DNA of 64,000 nucleotides from Mustelus asterias (Eukaryota). This document shows positions 7,863 to 63,184 of this stretch, in pieces; position 1 is the stretch's first letter; each line of letters starts with the position of its first letter. The stretch lies in NCBI RefSeq assembly GCF_964213995.1, contig NW_027590121.1, positions 2,604,001 to 2,668,000 of the forward strand, given 5' to 3'. The position numbers were made by a program, and so were the translations under genes. The notes beneath the pieces were generated by a model, which did no database searches, had not been told where the DNA came from, and saw only the letters and a program-made list of their open reading frames with translations.

Positions 7863-8340
7863 TGTTCACCAGGCTGATTCAGGGAATCGCGGGACTGATG
7901 TATGAGGAGAGACTGACTGGGTTAGAATTGTTTTCATTGGAGTTCAGATGAATGAGGGGGGAATCTCAAAGAGACTTATAAAATTCTAAGGGTCGAGACA
8001 GGATAGATGCAGGGAGGATGTTCCCGATGGAGTCCAGAACCGGGGGTCACAGTCTGAGGATTCAGGGCAGACCATTTAGGACGGATTTGAGGAGACATTT
8101 CTTCACCCAAAGAATAGTGACCCTGTGGAATTTATTACCACAGGAAGTGTTTGATGCCAAAACATTGAATGTATTCAAGAGGCGGCTGGATAAAGCACTT
8201 GGAGCGAATGGGATCAAAGGTTATGGGGCAAAAGCAGGATTAGGCTATTGAGTTGGATGATTAGCCATGATTGTAATGAATGGCGGAGCAGGCTCGAAGG
8301 GCAAATGGCCTCCTCCTGCTCCTATCTTCTATGTTTCTAT
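7863..8340 (+). mobile_element. CR1/HER1 LINE 3' fragment inserted in intron 1 of ZNF-A
   Basis: Translates to SRTGGHSLRIQGRPFRTDLRRHFFTQRIVTLWNLLP, followed by a 3' UTR with a tctatgtt tail. It splits a block that is contiguous at about 9630 and 19920. Confidence 0.85.
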
Positions 8341-8568
8341 ATCAATGTCTTTAAGAGAGAGAGAGACCTGGGCCAACCTTTCCAGAGTCTGCACCCTCCC
8401 TGGATTCACTTCCTTTCCCTTCAGTTGCTGCAAGTCCCCAATTTCCCCCAGAATGAGAAAAGAAATGGAAAGGGGGAGAAAAGAAAGTGTTTTACTCACA
8501 GATGTTGGCCTCTTTAAAGGAATGCAGTGCCAATTTGCAGATAGCACAGAAAGCCAGCAAAGGGGCCC

Positions 8569-12074: not shown

Positions 12075-12397
12075 GGGCAGCACGGTGGCACAGTGGTTAG
12101 CACTGCTGCCGCACAGTGCCAGGAACCTGGGTTCAATTCCGGCCTTGAGCAACTGTGTGGAGTGAGTACGTTCTCCCCGTGTCCGCATGGGTTTTCTTCA
12201 GGTGCTCCGGTTTCCTCCCACACTCCAAAGATGTGCAGGTTAGATTGATTGTGTTAAATTGCCCCTTAGTGTCAGGGGAATTAGTTGGGTGAATACGTGG
12301 GGTTACGGGAATAGGTACTGGGTGGGATTGTGGTCAGTGCAGACTCGATGGGCCGAATGGCCTCCTTCTGCACTGTAGGGATTCGATGATTTCTATG
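12075..12397 (+). mobile_element. HE1-type V-SINE with a 33-bp flanking direct repeat
   Basis: Full-length SINE. gagttaatgggaagtga[t/c]atcagcaag[g/a]tgacc occurs at 12041-12073 and 12397-12429. Confidence 0.9.
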
Positions 12398-19995: not shown

Positions 19996-20327
19996 GGGGC
20001 GGCACGGTAGCACAGTGGTTAGCACTGCTGCTTCACAGCTCCAGGGTCCCGGGTTCGATTCCCGGCTCGGGTCACTGTCTGTGTGGAGTTTGCACATTCT
20101 CCTCGTGTCTGCGTGGGTTTCCTCCGGGTGCTCCGGTTTCCTCCCACAGTCCAAAGATGTGTGGGTTAGGTTGATTGGCCAGGTTAAAAATTGCCCCTTA
20201 GAGTTCTGAGATGCGTGGATTAGCGGGTAAATATGTGGGGGTAGGGCCTGGGTGGGATTGTGGTCGGTGCAGACTCGATGGGCCGAATGGCCTCCTTCTG
20301 CACTGTAGGGTTTCTATGAGTTCTATA
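19996..20327 (+). mobile_element. HE1-type V-SINE, young
   Basis: Intact A box (tagcacagtgg) and B box (ggttcgattcc), V-domain and tail; CpGs are retained. Confidence 0.92.
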
Positions 20328-26519: not shown

Positions 26520-27120
26520 ATTTATTGTCCCCCTCCCCCATCCTCTGATGTGAACCATCCTCCAGTGGCTGAGCCAGGATGGGGCCGTTAACCTGGGTCT
26601 GTTCCCGGGAGGGAGGGAGTGAGAAGCCCCGCAGCTGCAAACCAGGGAGCTGACAATGATTCTGAAGGGTTTGTTCCAGCTCACAATGCCCAGGGGCTGA
26701 TTGACGGCAGCTCGGACCAATAGGAAGAGGAGGCGGGGCCGGATGACCGAGCGGGAGACGCTGGTCCTCCAACCAATCAGATTCAATCGGGATCTGGAAT
26801 GAGCCTGGAACTCCCTCTGTCTGCGCACGCGCTCCGCCGCAAGCTGTGCCCGTCTCAAGATGGCGGCCGTTCACCCGGGCCTGTCTGAGGGTAAAGGCCG
26901 AGCAGCTGTCATCCGTTTAAATACCGAATCCGAGCTTCGTATGAGGACTTGGGGCCTATACAGCATGTCTTATGAAGCCTCCAAACCAACCCACCCACCG
27001 GCTCCGTCTCTCGTTCCTGATTTATCCGGCGGTATCTCCCGGGCTGATAATTCCCACAACCGCCTCAATCCTCAACTGTGAGCGGCAATGCGCATGCTCC
27101 AGATCACAATGGGGGTCCGC
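26520..27120 (-). promoter_or_regulatory. Two tandem first-exon/promoter modules of ZNF-D
   Basis: 26520-26790 is an inverted, internally deleted homolog of 30460-30845 (putative donor CAG|GTTAAC). The second module has CGG|GTGAAC followed by the YY1 motif gccgccatcttg at about 26856. Confidence 0.65.
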
Positions 27121-27123
27121 ACT

Positions 27124-27451
27124 CAGCCCCGCCCCTCATTCACTCCCATTGGCTGGAGGACCAGGCTCTCCCGTACGGTCCTGCAGCCCCTCCCCTCATT
27201 CACTCCGATTGGCTGGAGGACCAGGCTGTCCCGCCCCGTCCACCAGCCCCGCCCCTCATTCACTCCCATTGGCTGGAGGACCAGACTGTCCCCCTCGGTC
27301 CTCCAGTCCCGCCCTTCATTCACTCCTATTGGCTGGAGGACCAGGCTGTCCCGCTTGGTCCTCCCGCCCCGCCCCTTATTCACTCCGATTGGCTAGAGGA
27401 CCAGGCTGTCCCGCTCAGTCCTCCAGCCCCGCCCCTCATTCACTCCGATTG
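27124..27451. repeat. 60-bp tandem repeat, about 5.5 units, each a GC box plus CCAAT box promoter unit
   Basis: cagccccgcccctcattcactcc[c/g]attggctggaggaccaggctgtcccgcNNggtcctc starts at 27124, 27184, 27244, 27304, 27364 and 27424. Confidence 0.95.
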
Positions 27452-27499: not shown

Positions 27500-27765
27500 C
27501 CTCCTGAAGCCAATTCAAGTCTGAGATGAAGAGGAATTTCTTCTCTCAGGGCGTTGTGAGTCTTTGGAATTCCTTGCCAGAGAGAGCTATGGGAGCAAAA
27601 TCCTTGTGGTATATTTAAGGCTGAGTTAGATTTTTGATCAATAAGGGAATCAGGGGTTATGGGGAAAGGGCAGGAAAGTGGATGTGAGGAATGTTGGGTC
27701 AGCCATGATCCTATTGAATGCTGGAGCAGGCCTGAGGGGCCGATCTGCCTTCTCCTGTTCTTATT
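27500..27765 (+). mobile_element. CR1/HER1 LINE 3' fragment
   Basis: gagatgaagaggaatttcttctctcagggcgttgtgagtctttggaattcc plus 3' UTR. Confidence 0.8.
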
Positions 27766-27779
27766 TCTTTTTGTCTTAA

Positions 27780-28083
27780 TCATAGAATCCTACGTACAGA
27801 AGGAGGCCATTCGGCCCATCGAGTCTTCACTGACCACATTCCCACCTAGGTCCTATCCCCATAACCCCATGCATTTACCCTAGTAGTCCCCTGATACTAA
27901 GGGGCAATTTAGCATGGCCAATCCACCTAACCCGCACATCTTTGTAGTGTGGGAGGAAACCGGAGCGCCCAGAGGAAACCCACACGGAGAGAATGTGCAA
28001 ATGACACATAGACAGTTACCCAAGCTGGGAATTGAATCCAGGTCCCTGGCGCTGAGGCAGCCGTGCTAACCACTGTGCCACCC
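27780..28083 (-). mobile_element. HE1-type V-SINE
   Basis: Head, V-domain and tail on the reverse strand. Confidence 0.85.
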
Positions 28084-29362: not shown

Positions 29363-30454
29363 AATTTGGATGTGAATGTACAATGCATGGTTAGTAAGTT
29401 TGTGGATGATACTAAGTTAGGAGTATTATTGATAACGAAGATGTACAATGTCAATGGCACCTGCTAGGTATTGTGCAATACATCTAATCCTATCAGATTA
29501 GAGCAGCAAGGATTAGGGCCAAGGGAATATTGGACTGCAGAGTTACAATAACATTAGATTTTTTTTCTCCTTCTAACCTGTCTTAGAATTTCCTTCAATA
29601 ACGAGACGATCAATATTTCCTTCAACAACTCGATGATCAATATGAGAGGATGAGCATTTCTGTAATTACAAAAGGAAAATGAGTGGCTGCAATTATCCTG
29701 AGATATTCTGCATTGTCTACTATCTCCAAATGGGCCTGATAACATAGGGTGGGAACGGAATGTTTAATGTTAGTGTTTGTTGTTGTTTCTGTGCTGAATG
29801 TAAGATTCTGTTTCAGAGAAGAAGGTCGAATATTGGATGGTCAAGACTGCTCGTTGTCCTTGGAGGGTCATTTTTCCCGAAATTTCTTGAACTTTGTGGC
29901 TTTATCCCGAATATTAGACAGGTGGGTGAGCGTTGTCCGCCCCAAAGGACAGTAAGTGTCCCGTGTGTATATTTGTGTGTGAGTAAGTGTATCCATGTGT
30001 GTATCATGGAGTAAATCTGCGTATATCCTCTGTGCATGTACCTGTTGATATACGTGGGTTTCTGTGCGTTGAGAAGATGTCCGTTTGTGTGTGACTGCGG
30101 GAGAGAATGTGTGGGCCTCTGTGTTTAGCTGTGTGCTGCTTTTCATTAACTGTACTACAAGCCTTCCTCTCCAAACAAACAATGTGGTTCCTGAGAATTC
30201 CATGGAGTGATTTGAATGATGCAATTCGGAGATTCTCCATCCAGGGTGAAACCACAGGCTGCCCGTGTGCTGTGTAAAACTTGACATTGCAGAGGTCCTA
30301 TTTCTCCCAGAATAACCTGGTGTCTGCTGCTTTCCAGATCCCTTCCTTTCCGCTCATCTGTTTGAAGCCACAAACAGAAAGGTCCAGTTTTCTCCTGGAG
30401 TTTGACACAAAGCAGCTTTCACAATGATGCAGAGTTTCAGCCAATGAGGGAGAT

Positions 30455-30790
30455 CCGGGCTCAGCCCCGCCTCTCATTCACTCTGATTGGTTGGAGGACC
30501 AGCCGCTCCCGCTCGGTCCCCCAGCCCCGCCCCCTCTTCCTATTGGTCCGGAGCTGCCGTCAATCAGTGCCCGGGCATTGTGATGTGGAGCATGCGCAGT
30601 GTCATTGCTGGCCTTGGTGCTTGTTTGTCCCGGAGAAGCGGAGTCAGCGTTAGGCGGTGTCTGGGAGGATTTGGAAACACTTTGTGGATCCGCAAACCCT
30701 TCAGAATCATTGTCAGCTCCCTGGTTTGCAGCTGCGGGGCTTCTCCCTCCCTCCCTCCCGGGAACAGGCCCAGGTTAACGGCCCCATCCT
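30455..30790 (+). promoter_or_regulatory. Promoter and first exon of ZNF-E
   Basis: About 1.5 copies of the GC/CCAAT unit, gcatgcgca, and a putative donor CAG|GTTAAC at 30773/30774. Confidence 0.68.
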
Positions 30791-31018
30791 GGCTCAACCA
30801 CTGGAGGATGGTTCACATCAGAGGATGGGGGAGGGGGACAATAAATAAGAGGTTACACTTTGGCCTCAAATCAATGAGGACTCTGATCTCTGGGAAGGAA
30901 GGAAACCCTGGGAGGTGGGCGGGGAGGATTCACAACCACCCGCTGGAGGCTCCAACACCCCCAATAAGATCCATTGGTTTTATTGTCAGTCTGCAGACAG
31001 GAGCTGGAGAACTGAACC

Positions 31019-31212
31019 CAGTAAGAAGTTTAACAACACCAGGTTAAAGTACAACAGGTTTATTTGGTCGCAAAAGCCACAAGCTTTCGGAGCGCTGCTC
31101 CTTCATCAGGTGAGTGGGAATTCTGTTCACAAACAGGGCATATAAAGACACAAACTCAATTTACAGAATAATGGTTGGAATGCGAATACTTACAGCTCAT
31201 CAAGTCTTAAAA
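31019..31212 (-). mobile_element. Penelope pLTR fragment in intron 1 of ZNF-E
   Basis: Reverse complement of about 1750..1948. Confidence 0.87.
31078..31112 (-). ncRNA. Minimal hammerhead ribozyme motif with a perfect core
   Basis: cac-CTGATGA-a-ggagc(agc)gctcc-GAAA-gc-TT-gtg on the - strand. Confidence 0.8.
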
Positions 31213-31804
31213 CCACATCATGAACTGAACCCAGACAGAGGAGAGGGAGGGAGAAAACTGGGAGTGGAGGAAAAAAATGGTGGAGATGGGTTTGGATTTC
31301 AGCCCAGGGAGGAGGGAGAGTGTGTGGGACGGGGATTTACAGATTTGGGGGAACAAGAGAGGAAAAAATGTTCCAGAGAAACTGGAATTGTTCAGAATTT
31401 TTATCCAGTTCTGACAGTGATGACTTTTCTAAACTTTTTTACAGGATATTCGAAGTGAAGGAACGGCAGTCGGAAAACTCAAACCGGACATCACATCTGA
31501 CAAAGTTATTCAGTTCCTTAGGAGCTGAATATCATCGGCCTTTGAATGTGGAAGGAGAAATATTTGTCTGTTCTGCCTGTGGGCAAAGAAATTTAACATC
31601 AGTGTGACCGGAAAAGTATCGGGACAAACCCACACCCGAGTGAGAGTGTTCCAGCGAACTGACTGTGGAAAGATCTTTAACCAGTTACACAGCCTGAAGA
31701 AACATAACACTTTTCACAGCAGGGTGAAACTATATGTATGTTGTGTGTGTGGACCAGGCTTTAACTGATCATCCAACTTGGAGAAGCACAAGGACACCAG
31801 CACC

Positions 31805-33129
31805 ATGGAGAAACCGTGGGAATGTGTGGATTGTGGGAAGGGATTCGGTTTCCCATCACAATTGGAAGTTCATCGGCGCAGTCACACTGGGGAGAGACCG
31901 TTCACCTGCTCCGTCTGTGGGAAGGGATTCACCCATTCATACAATCTTCTGACTCACCAACGGGTTCACACTGGGGAGAGGCCGTTCACCTGCCCTGTGT
32001 GTGGGAAGGGATTCACTCGCTCATCCCACATTGTGACACACCAACTTGTTCACACTGATGAGAAACTGTTTACATGTTCTGACTGTGAGAAGAGTTTTAA
32101 ATGCAAAAAAGATCTGCTGACACACCAACGAATTCACACTGGGGAGAGACCGTTCACCTGCTCTGTGTGTGGGAAAGGATTCATTCAGTCATCCCACTTG
32201 CAGACACATCAACTTGTTCACTCTGATAACAAACTTTTTAATTGTTCTGACTGTGCGAAGAGCTTTAAAAACAAAAAGGATCTGCTGACGCACCAATATA
32301 CTCACACTGGGGAGAGGCCATTCACCTGCTGTGTGTGTGGGAAGGGATTCAGCTGCCCATCTGCCCTACTGAACCACCAGAGAATTCACACTGGGGAGAG
32401 GCCCTTGTGGGGGTAGGGCCTGGGTGGGATTGTGGTCGGTGCAGACTCGATGGGCCGAATGGCCTCCTTCTGCACTGTAGGGTTTCTATGATTTCTATGA
32501 CCTGCTCAGACTGTGGGAAGGGATTTATTAATTCATCCAACCTTCTGATACACCAGCAGTTCCACACAGGGGATCGACCGTTCACCTGCTCTGAATGTGG
32601 GAAGGGATTCACCCATTCATACAACCTTCTGACACACCAGCAGGTTCACAGTGAGGAGAGGCCATTCACTTGCTCCGTGTGTGGGAAGGGATTCACCCGT
32701 TCATACAACCTTCTGACACACCAGCAGGTTCACAGTGAGGAAAGGCCATTCACTTGCTCCGTTTGTGGGAAGGGATTCACTCGTTCATCCAACTTATTGA
32801 ATCACCAGCGAGTTCACACTGGGGAAAGGCCGTTCACCTGCTCCACATGTGGGAAGGGATTCAGTCAGTCATCCAACGTGCTGACACATCAGAGAATTCA
32901 CAGTGGGGAGAGGCCATTTACCTGCTCTGTCTGTGGGAAGGGATTTTCTCATTTATCTTATCTTCTGAAACACCAGCGAGTTCACACTGGGGAGAGGCCG
33001 TTCACCTGTAATGTCTGTGGAAAGGGATTTATTCAGTCATCCCACCTGCTAACACACCGGCGAGTTCACAAGGGACTGCAAGGTTTGGATTCTACACTTA
33101 TTGATGCTGTTAATCATATCCAGGTCTGA
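31805..33129 (+). CDS. C2H2 zinc-finger gene E, 14 fingers (7+7), interrupted by a SINE tail at about 32405-32500; truncated, split or splice-rescued
   Basis: accATGG at 31805. Seven fingers end in HTGERPLWG* at 32416; seven more run in another frame from about 32500 to 33129. Acceptor at 31444/31445. Confidence 0.8.
32405..32500 (+). mobile_element. HE1 SINE 3' tail inserted in a finger linker
   Basis: Matches the tail of 19996..20327 (tgtgggggtagggcctgggtgggattg...gggtttctatga); no target-site duplication. Confidence 0.93.
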
Positions 33130-34039
33130 ATCATCTTCACTCTGACTTTTTTCTTCTGTTTGAGGTTTGATATTCTGAATAAATGTGAAATAGACATTTG
33201 ATTGAATCATTGTTGTAGATTTTTGTCTTTTCCATTTGAGTGTTTAACGTCACCAGGCTGGAGCTCAGAAAGGGCAATCTGAGGGAGGATCATACAGTAG
33301 GAACAGAACTTCATTCTTGACCCAGTCCTTCAGGGTCACGCTGAGAGGGTCACACAGCACTTTGGTCTTTTTCGTCACTTTTCACTGACAGCAAAGTCCC
33401 CGTGTGGGTGAATCCTGAGGTGTGTAAGAAATGTGTCCCAGTCGTTCTTTTCCATGGTTCAGAGCTCCGAGACACGGAACAGAAGCTCCTTTACAACTGT
33501 GTTTAGAGTCAGGAAGAACAATGGTGAATGCTGGAAACGTGTGTCAAAGATTGGTGTAAAACTGGGATCTATTCCTGACTGAGAGTGAAACGGCAGGTTT
33601 AGGTTTCCAGACTAAAAATGAAAAAAAGTGTAAAACATTTTAATGTGTGTGTTTCAGTCCTGGTTTATTGAACAGAAACTGGCTTCAAATAAATTGGTTG
33701 AAGTCTGCATTAAAGTAGCAGCTGGAGACGTTCAAAGGAGCCTGTTAACTGCTGGGACAATGAGACAACAATTTGATTCCCAGATAGAGAAGGAGCTGCA
33801 GTGTGTGTCCAAGAATTCTCAGTTTTGTTGTGTGCTTCCCATCCACTATCCTTCTAAATAAACCTCACTCCTATCAGCCTTTAACCATTATAAACAGAAC
33901 AGAGAGAAGCTGAGCAGCACCAGAGCCCTGACTGACCATTTAAGAATGAGTGATGTGTTCAGCTGAAGTTTCCTGTTGGTAGTTTTCTGGGTGATCTCCT
34001 TATTTTGATTATTCTCAGTGACCCCTGGGTGTGAACCTG

Positions 34040-34866: not shown

Positions 34867-35785
34867 AATGCGGCCTGTATCGTGAATCGTGTGGAGGACG
34901 GAGAAGATCTGCAGAGAGATTTGGACAGGCTGAGTGAGTGGGCGAGGATATGGCAAATGGAGTATAACGTTGAGAAATGCGAGGTTATACACTTTGGAGG
35001 AAATAATAACAAATGGGATTACTATCTCAATGGAAACAAATTAAAACATGCTACCGTGCAAAGGGACCTGGGGGTCCTTGTGCATGAGACGCAAAAGCCC
35101 AGTCTGCAGGTACAACAGGTGATCAAGAAGGCAAATGGGATGTTGGCCTATATTGCGAGGGGGATAGAATATAAAAGCAGAGATGTCTTGATGCACCTGT
35201 ACAGGGCATTGGTGAGGCCGCAGCTGGAATACTGTGTGCAGTATTGGTCCCCTTATATGAGGAAGGATATATTGGCATTGGAGGGAGTGCAGAGAAGGTT
35301 CACCAGGTTGATACCGGAGATGAGGGGTTTGGATTATGAGGAGAGGCTGAGGAGATTGGGTTTGTACTCGTTGGAGTTTAGAAGGATGAGGGGGGATCTT
35401 ATGGAGACTTATAAGATAATGCGGGGGCTGGATAGGGTGGAGGCGGAGAGATTCTTTCCACTTAGTAAGGAAGTTAAAACTAGAGGACACAGCCTCAAAA
35501 TAAAGGGGGTTCGGTTTAAGACAGAGTTGAGGAGGAACTTCTTCTCCCAGAGGGTGGTGAATCTCTGGAATTCTCTGCCCACTGAGGTGGTGGAGGCTAC
35601 CTCGCTGAATATGTTTAAAGCGCGGATGGATGGATTCTTGATCGGTAAGGGAATTAAGGGTTATGGGGATCAGGCGGGTAAGTGGTACTGATCCACGTCA
35701 GATCAGCCATGATCTTATTGAATGGCGGGGCAGGCTCGAGGGGCTAGATGGCCTACTCCTGCTCCTATTTCTTATGTTCTTATGT
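34867..35785 (+). mobile_element. Young 5'-truncated CR1/HER1 LINE with open ORF2 C-terminus and 7-bp TSD
   Basis: Uninterrupted ORF to 35691 (LQRDLDRLSEWA..RDLGV..LYRALVRPQLEYC..QRVVNLWNSLP), tail cttatgttcttatgt, and atctgtc at 34860-34866 and 35786-35792. Confidence 0.93.
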
Positions 35786-35914
35786 ATCTGTCCAGAGAGT
35801 CAGGGCAGAGTCACAAAGGTCACATTGTGGTGACATTTACAAATGAGTCAGTTATTTCTGTTCAGAGTTTCCATTTGCAGATAAAACCAGCTGTGTCTGT
35901 GGATCAGTTTCTGA

Positions 35915-38794: not shown

Positions 38795-39162
38795 AACATT
38801 GAGGTGTATAAAATTCTGAGGGGCACAGATAGGGGGGAGAGGAAGGAACTTTTCTCTTTAGTAGAGAGGTCAATAACCAGGGGCCTGGATTTAAGTTCAG
38901 GGGCAGGAGGTTTATAGGAGATGAGAGGGAAAGCTTTTCCACTCAGATGGTGGTGGGAATCTGGAACTCACTGCCTGAAAGGGTGGTAGAGGTGGGAATC
39001 ATCATCACATTTAAGAAGAATTTAGATAAACTCTTGCAATGCCATAATATGCAAGGTTACACATCACGTGTGGAAAATGGGATTAGAATAGAACGGTGCT
39101 TGATGGCCGGCACAAACACGATGGGCCGAAGGGCCTCTTTCCATGCTGTAAAACTCTATGAT
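38795..39162 (+). mobile_element. CR1/HER1 LINE 3' fragment
   Basis: IEVYKILRGTDR...VVGIWNSLPERVVE plus 3' UTR. Confidence 0.8.
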
Positions 39163-39905
39163 CACCCACGTTGGCAGCAAGTTCAATATCATCATCAATC
39201 ACAACCCCCCCTGTATCTTCACTCACTGAAACAATCCAGTTAAAACATTCTTAGTCGAGAATGTAGCCATATTTCTTTTGGACTGGCAGCCTGCATGGAG
39301 ACTTTCAGCTCTCTATGTCCAGGACAGGAAGCAGTGAGCGTGGATCTGTCAATCAGCCTCAATCAGCACCTTCAGGAGAATTGGGAGGGTGAATATTAGA
39401 TACAGCAGAGTGAGAATGGAGGGAGAGTGTGTGGGATGGAGATTTACAGCTTTTGGGGAATGAGAGAGGAAAGAATGTTCCATAGAAACTAGAATTGTCT
39501 GTTCTGAATTTCTATCCTGTACTGACACTGATGAATTTTGTAAATTGTTTTCACAGGATATTAGAGGAATCACACCGATAAATCTTAACGATCACATCTC
39601 GATCTGACAGAGTCACTCGATTCCTTGGAAACTAAATATCCTTAGCCTCTGAATGGGAAGGAGAAATGTTTGACCGGTCTGTCGACTGCAAGATTTTAAG
39701 CAGCAGTGTGACTGGAAAAACACCAGGACACAAACACACACCCGAGTGAGAGTGTTCCAGTGCATTGAGTGTGGAAAGAGCTTTAACCAGTTACACAGCC
39801 TGAAAAAAACATCGCTGCATTCACAGTGGGGAGAGACTGTACCCGTGTTCTGTGTGGACAAGGCTTCAAATGATTGACCTCCAATGATACAAGGAGACCG
39901 ACAAT

Positions 39906-42431: not shown

Positions 42432-43156
42432 TCATAGAATAGAATCCCAACAGTGCAGAAGGAGGCCATTCAGCCTATCGAGCCTGCACTGACAATAATC
42501 CCAGCCTTTCTCCGTAACACCACCTGTTTACCCTGCTAATCCCCCAGAAACTAGGGTCAATTTAGCATGGCCAATCAACCCAACCCACACATCTTTGGAC
42601 TGTGGGAGGAAACCGGAGCATCTGGAAGAAACTCATGCAGACACGGGGAGAACGTGCAAACTCCGCACAGACAGTGACCCAAGCCAGGAATCAAACCTGG
42701 ATCCCTGGCACTGTGAGACAGCAGTGCTAACCACTACATCCTTGTTCTCCTTGGAATGACGGAGAATGAGGGGAGATCTAATAGAGGTGTACAAGATTAT
42801 GAAGTGTATAGATAGGGTGAACAGTGGGAAGCTTTTTCCCAGGTCGGAGATGACGATCACTAGGGGTCACGGGCTCAAGGTGAGAGGGGCGAAGTATAAC
42901 TCAGATATCAGAGGGACGTTTTTTACACAGAGGGTGGTGGGGGCCTGGAATGCGCTGCCAAGTAGGGTGGTGGAGGCAGGCACGCTGACATCGTTCAAGA
43001 CTTACCTGGATAGTCACATGAGCAGCCTGGGAATGGAGGGATACAAACGATTGGTCTAGTTGGACCAAGGAGCGGCACAGGCTTGGAGGGCCGAAGGGCC
43101 TGTTTCCTGTGCTGTACTGTTCTTTGTTCTTTGTTCACTGTGCCACGATGCCGCCA
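42432..43156 (-). mobile_element. HE1-type V-SINE interrupted in its tRNA head by a CR1 LINE
   Basis: SINE body at 42432-42735; the head resumes as cactgtgccacgatgccgcc at about 43136-43156, with cact duplicated. Confidence 0.85.
42738..43135 (+). mobile_element. 5'-truncated CR1/HER1 LINE nested in the SINE
   Basis: MRGDLIEVYKIMK...FFTQRVVGAWNALP and tail tgttctttgttctttgtt. Confidence 0.9.
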
Positions 43157-49336: not shown

Positions 49337-50100
49337 GAGGCCTGTTCCCGGGAGGGAGGGAGAAGCCCCACAGCTGCAAACCAGGGAGCTGACAATGATT
49401 CTGAAGGGTTTGCGGATCCACAAAGTGTTTCCAAATCCTCCCAGCCACCGCCTAACGCTGACTCCGCTTCTCCGGGACAAACAAGCGCCAAGGACAGCAA
49501 TGACACTGCGCATGCTCCACATCACAATGCCCGGGGGCTGATTGACGGCAGCTCCGGACCAATAGGAAGGGGCGGGGCTGGAGGACCGAGCAGGAGCGGC
49601 TGGTCCTCCAACCAATCGGAGTGAATGAGGGGCGGGGCTGGAGGACCGAGCAGGAGCGGCTGGTCCTCTAACCAATCGGAGTGAATGAGGGGCGGGGCTG
49701 AGGCGTCCCCATACAACGCACGGGAAGTAGTTCGCATGCGCAGTAATGTTACAGTCTGGAGCATGCGCAGTAAGCAACGGCGTTTGCAGTACGCACAGTG
49801 TGGGTGGTAGCAATCGGAGAGAAGTTCCTCTGTCATCAGCAGCCGGTAAGGATGCGGAAACATAGAGGGAGCAATGGAACCGGCGGATGGACGTAGAGGG
49901 TTTCTAAATACCTGGTCAAGGCCTCAAATCTCGAAAATGAGCCCGTCGGTCTGTGTTTGCAGCTTCCGGTCTTTTTCCCGAGGCGAGGTTAACGGCCGCC
50001 ATCTTGATTCAGCAGGGAGGAGAGCGCATGCGCGGTGTCTTGGTGACGCAACAGCGAGTGGGCGGGACTTCATGTTTCTGCTTCCCCTCCAGGTCCTAAC
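49337..50100. promoter_or_regulatory. Bidirectional CpG-island promoter for ZNF-F (-) and ZNF-H (+)
   Basis: About 2.5 copies of the 60-bp GC/CCAAT unit (49555-49702), several gcatgcgc motifs, and GAG|GTTAAC plus YY1 gccgccatcttg at 49988-50006. 49337-49700 is an inverted homolog of 30455-30770. Confidence 0.75.
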
Positions 50101-62119: not shown

Positions 62120-62478
62120 CATTCTGAGGGGCTTGGATAGAGTGGACGTGGAGAGGATGTTTCCAAGAGTGGGAGAGACTAGAACTCGAGGGCACAATCT
62201 CAGGGTTAAGGGACGCTCCTTTAAAACTGAGATGAGAAGGAATTTCTTCAGTCAGAGAGTGGTGAATCTGTGGAATTCATTGCCACATAGGGCTGTGGAG
62301 GCCGGGTCATTGAGTGTCTTTAAGACAGAGATAGATAGGTTCTTGATCAATAAGGGGATCAAGGGTTACAGGGAGAAGGTAGGAGAATGGGGATGAGAAT
62401 CATATCAGCCATGATTGAATGGTGGAGCAGACTCGATGGGGAAACGGCCTATTTCTGCTCCTATATCTTATGGTCTTA
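62120..62478 (+). mobile_element. CR1/HER1 LINE 3' fragment
   Basis: DRVDVERMFP...FFSQRVVNLWNSLP and tail tcttatggtctta. Confidence 0.88.
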
Positions 62479-63184
62479 TTTAACTCTTTATTACTATTCT
62501 GTCTGAAAATCTTATGAGCTGGTCCGGAATCCCCCTCTACCCGCTCCCTGTGAGGAGGCCGGATGTGGATTATTACCAAAAGTCTGATTGTCGGTGGGGG
62601 GTCTGGTGGGTGGAAGCAGAACCTGGAGTTGGGCAGTGGGTGTTACCGTACTGGTATTGAGGCTCCTGGGTGGTCACACTGTGTTCCCCTTCTCCATGGG
62701 ATGCCACCTGTGTGGGTTCATGTTGGGCACTGGAAATTTCCAGTGTACAGTTTAGTGTGGGGTTACATCCCCCTCCCTACAGGGTGTGGGCGGACAACAT
62801 TCCTCCCTTTCTCCCGACACTCCACAAACAAGATTCCCGGAGAGAGGGATCCACTCTGAGTTATAGTCAGTACATTTAATCAATGCAGTAGATTGTGTGG
62901 ACATAAAAGATTCTCCAGCTCTCCATTCACCTGGATCCATCTTGTGGATAAATGTTATGAAGTATTATTTCTCCCGAGCCTTCAATTGTCCCAATCCAAA
63001 ATTCCTTTAAGCTTTAGTCCATCTTCATTGTCTTAAAGTCCGTTTGTCTCTGGAGTTTGTGTCAGTGCCTTGATCATTTCAAAATGTTTTCTTACTCTTC
63101 AGGCCATGTTAGCCATTGCACGCCGCATATTCTGAGGGAGTCTGCATCAGTGTCCTGTACACCCTGTCTGACTGGTAACTACTG

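Follow-up and report, generated by a model that had tools for sequence, protein, structure and literature searches.

HE1 is a tRNA-derived V-SINE of sharks and rays, and HER1 is its LINE partner (PMC3747384, PMC2911107). SINEs have also been described as sources of introns, in rice catalase A and, by Alu intronization, in SS18L1, PDZD7, C14orf111, and CWF19L1 (PMC2394776). Introners are transposons that carry their own GT and AG, about 5% of the classified ones being non-LTR elements (PMC12130899), while exitrons are segments whose retained form has the features of a coding exon (PMC4484396). Introns have been gained by vertebrates before, as the 342 events reported for humans show, 3 of them by intronization (PMC12124190); recent intron gain in vertebrates is described as apparently lacking in PMC12130899. 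Our literature search, which covered mostly non-subscription papers without their supplements, found no report of an intron made from a shark SINE tail.

We analyzed a shark zinc-finger gene that is interrupted by such a tail, within a 64-kb stretch of DNA (the window) that contains ten C2H2 zinc-finger genes (A–J), CR1-type LINE pieces, and SINE pieces. The initial annotation read the tail in this gene, gene E, as a newborn intron or as a point of gene fission. In our assessment the interruption is probably an ordinary insertional truncation of a redundant gene, from 14 fingers to 7, an unremarkable event in a redundant zinc-finger cluster. The gene comprises the following parts:

30440..30773, plus strand: promoter-like region (CCAAT and GC boxes) and putative non-coding exon 1, judged from its sequence and from near copies ahead of other cluster genes
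30774, plus strand: candidate donor of intron 1, CAG/GTTAAC, from its sequence
31400..31444, plus strand: 3′ splice site of the host gene's intron, with a U-rich tract and CAG; homologues of this site occur at 10 positions of the window
31805..32416, plus strand: coding part 1, from the MEKPW start through fingers 1–7 to the TAG of the insert (203 aa; Pfam zf-C2H2)
32500..33129, plus strand: coding part 2, an ORF with undamaged fingers 8–14, which the insert has put downstream of a stop and in another frame (Pfam zf-C2H2)
33178..33183, plus strand: candidate AATAAA poly(A) signal

The fingers are tandem C-x2-C-x12-H-x3-H units joined by TGERP linkers, as in C2H2 (Kruppel-type) proteins, and the insertion point is the linker between fingers 7 and 8. 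As first annotated, the insert creates a TAG at 32414–32416 in the frame of the ATG at 31805, and all seven downstream fingers are intact, each keeping its C-C-H-H. The closest named proteins among the matches listed are shark and ray zinc-finger proteins with 64–75% identity; no orthologue was found among the best 120 of 4661, 120 of 203, and 120 of 554 matches (best 73–75%). Neither the truncated protein nor the two downstream proteins had an exact match in the protein collection (0 of 3), and five-residue words derived from the tail occurred in none of the 240 homologous proteins examined.

The extent and the source of the insert were defined by comparison with other SINE copies in the window:

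32406..32500, plus strand: SINE tail, sense orientation, 5′-truncated, 93–95 nt, without target-site duplication; 92 of 93 positions identical to 20234–20326
19996..20326, plus strand: full-length copy (331 nt) of the same SINE subfamily, outside the gene, used as reference in the sequence comparison
32481..32500, plus strand: terminal short repeats of the SINE, which would remain in the exon after excision and carry the ATGs at 32488 and 32497

The annotated element (32399–32505) is indeed a SINE tail, with bounds that need correction: it starts at 32406/32407, with 32399–32405 belonging to the host GERP linker outside the insert, and ends at 32499/32500. Contigs of sequencing runs from related organisms have loose SINE ends at 32406/32408 and 32493/32500, which mark the insert edges. 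The insert consists of the last (3′) 93 nt of a tRNA-type SINE, so placed that the net gain is 92 nt with 1–4 host nucleotides lost; the longest repeat flanking it is 3 nt. Its single difference from the full copy lies inside the terminal repeats, and its first 86 nt match that copy without a mismatch, three CpGs included. Because of this identity and the intact CpGs the insert is taken to be young, and the insertion would be very recent; the identity data favor low divergence and still allow up to about 3.4%.

The window holds 18 pieces of this one tRNA-type SINE, only one of which lies inside a ZNF coding span, a depletion that is not significant (P = 0.19). Since the insert is a near-perfect repeat piece whose junctions are read from the assembly, a repeat mis-joined into the gene during assembly has to be considered. 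We find such an artefact hardly credible, because the junctions have the look of retroposition, with the short repeats at the 3′ end complete, the 5′ end truncated, overlaps of 1 nt, and little target sequence lost, and two other short tail-only copies occur elsewhere in the window.

The name HE1 comes from the initial annotation; the SINE fits the published description of HE1, beside which it is set by that description and not by a deposited consensus. The full copy has A/B-box-like motifs in a possibly tRNA-like head, as in HE1, where the Rfam match (19.3 bits, E = 0.26) is weak and below threshold. It resembles HE1/HER1 in the LINE-like 3′ stem-loop, in the short terminal repeats, in having no poly(A), and in its high copy number. 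It differs in that the full copy here measures 331 nt versus the 402 nt quoted for zebrafish HE1, and the insert is the tail only.

Within the tail lies a predicted hairpin that bears on the candidate splice acceptor:

32438..32476, plus strand: LINE-type 3′ stem-loop that pairs the candidate pyrimidine tract (32438–32445 with 32469–32476; 32452–32456 with 32461–32465)

The pair probabilities of this stem-loop are 0.76–1.0 in three contexts, and the same fold, in different letters, stands behind several CR1 LINE ORF ends in the window. CR1-type LINE 3′ ends that differ in sequence but have the stem-loop geometry of the SINE tail, with compensatory changes, lie at 35724–35786, 43071–43133, 8282–8343, 62421–62482, 27720–27785, and 39106–39168. 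In a set of eight hand-picked SINE and LINE tails, which are related sequences, 95% of the cells are paired and nine cells are changed on both sides, a result reached by none of 500 shuffles. Counted by column, three column pairs show two-sided change, a measure that 175 of 500 shuffles reach, and the SINE copies alone, with 95% paired cells and zero two-sided change, do not beat their shuffles. The stem-loop behind the LINE ORF ends and the covariation tie the 3′ tail of the SINE to the ends of CR1-type LINEs. For other LINE/SINE pairs of fish, a hairpin in the tail is described as the site that the LINE recognizes, and the stringent LINE/SINE pairs UnaL2 and HAmo likewise have a conserved hairpin followed by short tandem repeats, an arrangement common to SINE and LINE ends (PMC2653535). 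Their loop sequence and LINE partner differ from those of the shark SINE, in which the hairpin is a candidate recognition site for the reverse transcriptase. The pyrimidine run forms the 3′ arm of a stem-loop common to SINE and CR1 LINE tails, which would account for it without splicing.

The segment proposed as an intron, together with its donor, is located as follows:

32413..32480, plus strand: candidate GT-AG intron, 68 nt, 40% G, four GGG runs
32410..32418, plus strand: candidate donor GGG/GTAGGG, which includes the TAG stop; U1 duplex −9.4 kcal/mol

We confirmed the GT at 32413–32414 and the AG at 32479–32480, 68 nt from end to end, so that the segment has intron-like ends and is longer than about 65 nt, the threshold described for human introns. 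Its computed excision yields, as proposed, a single open frame from the ATG at 31805 to the stop at 33127–33129, encoding 418 aa with 14 C2H2 fingers. The GT is found in 5 of 14 aligned SINE tail copies and the AG in 12 of 14; both are letters of the SINE consensus. The GT is a subfamily variant present in the tails at 20234, 36007 (minus strand), 41701, 24195, and 32406, which form the group of five closest to the insert. In several more diverged tails an A replaces it (the copies compared are at 12312, 9469, 27861 on the minus strand, and 21754 on the minus strand). We infer that the GT and AG are passengers inherited from the SINE and were not made at the insertion site.

How much weight frame restoration can bear was estimated from simulated sense insertions given the same cut. 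The frame was open in 22% of 3000 trials with 0–10 nt of SINE residue 5′ of the GT, in a fraction of 0.15 with 11–30 nt, 0.015 with 31–100 nt, and 0 with over 100 nt; a full-length copy, which has 245 nt 5′ of the GT and 18 nt 3′ of the AG, gave no open frame in 3000 trials. Restoration of the frame is not much beyond chance, roughly a 1-in-5 event for an insertion truncated so near the GT. Of the 27 GT-AG pairs around the insert whose removal brings the frame back, 2 leave all 14 fingers in place. In the spliced product the inter-finger gap would be 15 residues, compared with 7 in 92 of 99 gaps, and finger 8 would carry Met at a position that is aromatic (F/W/Y) in 110 of 113 fingers.

These numbers bear directly on true intron birth, by which we mean efficient splicing that makes the 14-finger protein with a long central linker the main product, with selection keeping fingers 8–14. 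The exact frame restoration by one of the only two finger-preserving pairs, the preservation of the downstream half together with the 3′ end and the poly(A) signal, and the rice catalase A precedent (as cited in PMC2394776) all speak for it. We nevertheless regard it as very improbable: no site-specific change improves the splice signals over the parent SINE, the acceptor is buried and U-poor, an open frame has a chance of 0.22, finger 8 loses its aromatic residue, and broken genes are common in the cluster: in five of ten (E, F, H, I, and J) the break falls within the array of fingers.

Described systems match the candidate only in part. Like the rice catalase A and Alu introns, it would derive from a SINE that was inserted in an exon, here the last one, and that supplies or activates splice sites, with retention expected as one form; those introns have transcript support and the four human cases lie in 3′ UTRs, whereas the present site is coding and its 68-nt intron is a candidate from sequence. 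It shares with introners its own GT and AG, but introners are families of introns, and the window shows one such site, at which about 25 nt would be left in the exon. It also departs from introners in that these are removed nearly whole, and most of a full element would stay behind here. With exitrons the segment has in common that it is a GT-AG segment within a single coding exon. It departs from exitrons too, as the 68-nt segment includes a stop codon, has a length not divisible by 3, and comes from a transposon; regarded as an exitron-like excision, it has a retained form that is not coding (in-frame TAG at 32414, net +92 nt).

The splice sites themselves were compared with those of the cluster, using U1 and folding scores that are predictions. 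The donor had been called weak; on the contrary, its U1 pairing of −9.4 kcal/mol lies in the top 1% of the 7325 GTs of the window, is the best of exon 2, and is stronger than that of the gene's own inferred intron-1 donor (−5.6). Simple counting of consensus matches makes it an average site (5 of 9 matches, a level reached by 23% of GTs). The scoring used the U1 end and the donor consensus as motifs. The predicted U1 complementarity points to a usable 5′ site. In addition, 32414–32424 matches the enhancer described for human ultra-short introns (PMC4463651) at 9 of 11 positions, as do 47 such sites in the window.

The acceptor compares less well with 10 cluster acceptors, which are themselves inferred by homology. 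The pyrimidine tract claimed for it is real, with 12 of 17 pyrimidines (11–13 at the cluster acceptors), yet it is weaker than claimed, being U-poor (5 of 17 U versus 7–11) and mostly paired in the predicted hairpin. The predicted probability that the tract is unpaired is 0.16, compared with 0.35–0.60 at the cluster acceptors. Shuffling the middle of the segment raised accessibility to a mean of 0.29, with 8 of 200 shuffles as low as the real segment. The branch point is weak, as had been noted: no yUnAy lies at −15 to −50 of the AG, while 8 of the 10 cluster acceptors have one, and the sole unpaired candidate branch As (32458/32459) sit in a 4-nt loop 46–47 nt from the donor. The candidate intron thus has neither a consensus branch point nor a single-stranded U-rich tract. 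A review describes 3′ splice sites as attenuated where RNA structure conceals the pyrimidine tract and branch site (PMC11802352). Fish introns can also gain from structure, through AC/GT repeats that bridge the intron ends (PMC4691745), and such repeats are absent from the 68-nt segment.

Signals of this kind could sustain leaky splicing, in which the 68 nt would be removed from a few per cent of transcripts to give a minor 7+7-finger isoform, a proto-intron of the retained-intron type. The good predicted donor, an adequate pyrimidine count, the four GGG runs, the 40% G content, and the enhancer-like 11-mer are compatible with it. Human introns of 43–65 nt are spliced, the G-rich ultra-short ones despite poor sites, and 68 nt lies above the 65-nt threshold of that study (PMC4463651); Alu-derived alternative introns are known in last exons (PMC2394776). 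We still consider such leakage unlikely: the tract is predicted to be paired with a probability of 0.9–1.0 at 15, 25, and 37°C, the consensus branch motif is missing, canonical human introns become scarce below 70 nt (PMC5435141), and sense HE1 exonization in zebrafish draws on sites in the 5′ region and not on the tail (PMC2911107).

What the gene would lose by remaining unspliced is limited. The genes of the cluster begin at an MEKPW-like ATG within the last exon. The whole CDS lies in the last exon, with no downstream junction, and junction-dependent NMD spares an mRNA without an exon junction downstream of its stop. The unspliced mRNA should therefore escape junction-dependent NMD. Its expected product is a 7-finger protein of ordinary size, so that splicing is not required to save the gene; a neighbour in the cluster, gene D, is intact and has 7 fingers. 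The intron-birth interpretation of the initial annotation keeps its SINE tail, its in-frame GT-AG pair, and its recent insertion; it is undercut by the buried acceptor, the missing consensus branch point, the commonness of the frame coincidence, and the absence of a need for rescue. In insertional truncation, the reading that we prefer, a young, 5′-truncated, tRNA-derived shark SINE landed in sense orientation in the finger 7/8 linker of a member of a fast-turnover C2H2 cluster, and this step is shown by the sequence. The TAG of the insert ends translation after finger 7 in the unspliced frame, where it is seen directly, and the unspliced mRNA would give the 203-aa, 7-finger protein, unless the locus is already silent. 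The 68-nt segment, with its tract mostly paired, would be retained in nearly all transcripts, its pyrimidine run existing as the 3′ arm of a stem-loop presumably read by LINE machinery, and the downstream fingers would be intact since little time has elapsed. The caution that intact fingers 8–14 may reflect nothing but a recent insertion is well founded: the probability that the half stays undamaged is 0.74 for a divergence of 0.2% and 0.49 for one of 0.5%. The corresponding values are 0.21 at 1% and 0.05 at 2%, and for an insertion 2% old or more an intact half would be unlikely without selection on fingers 8–14; with identity data that allow up to about 3.4%, such selection may play a part.

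The proposal that the tail's ATGs start a separate 7-finger gene holds insofar as those at 32488 and 32497 are both in frame, opening ORFs of 213 and 210 aa with seven fingers. As gene fission it is poorly supported. The context of the ATGs is weak (T at −3, A at +4) compared with ACC ATG G at 31805, exon 2 has 10 upstream ATGs, out-of-frame ATGs at 32450 and 32459 intervene between the stop and 32488, and the promoter head of the SINE is missing from the insert. Reinitiation would have to follow a 203-codon ORF, after which it is poor. We regard fission as the least probable of the readings considered here.

Contigs from sequencing runs (X1, X3, X9, and X5 of 24 runs, from related organisms) cover the promoter and the intron and so behave like DNA; the run search listed no RNA run for this sequence, and its best share of words was 0.52. 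The joint 32412/32481 is not among the 15 contig joints listed (207 further), which weighs neither way, the contigs being DNA-like, the bins over the insert swamped by SINE contigs, and run X1 partly counted. Record 29 of run X9 matches 32500–32610 apart from three differences, whereas the remaining 22 letters disagree with the insert. As a bridging record requires 31 letters, this is no more than a hint that a near copy without the interruption exists.

A broader version of the intron idea is that the youngest SINE subfamily gained the GT, that with the conserved AG its tail is a latent 68-nt G-rich intron, and that at this locus we see the birth of an intron within vertebrate coding sequence. 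We judge this to be quite improbable. Were it true, coding exons could be rid by splicing of any copy whose 5′ end lies no more than about 30 nt from the GT, splicing would proceed even though the pyrimidine tract doubles as the LINE recognition stem, and an identical internal junction would be expected in all young copies that are transcribed, a prediction testable genome-wide. Junction reads, if they exist, would establish that a vertebrate has gained a datable intron in coding sequence from a SINE, and would reveal a single RNA element serving both retroposition and splicing.

Several minor observations concern the cluster around the gene. Genes C and G stop ahead of decayed fingers; they are close paralogues with a common early stop (17778–16405 and about 48870–47660, both on the minus strand). 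Upstream of the MEKPW start, 31445–31804 and its equivalents in other cluster genes consist of decayed fingers with shared stops, and the 5′ UTR would thus derive from fingers that once were coding. The gene's intron contains another repeat of very high copy number at 31000–31230, where contig depths are 5e4 to 8e6. In run X1, near-identical contigs at 33103–33300 and 31990–32121 have depths of 1170 and 1346, where the lowest contigs in the list have 12 and 34; this hints at many near-identical paralogues in a related organism, the depth not being a copy number. The promoter and exon 1 recur on the minus strand at 49640–49339 and 26817–26566 with 94% and in part 97% identity, while the coding exons share only about 75%, and the difference is read as a putative recent promoter duplication or conversion in the cluster. 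Beside a minus-strand promoter copy, several tandem CCAAT/GC-box promoter units lie on the plus strand at 27107–27451.
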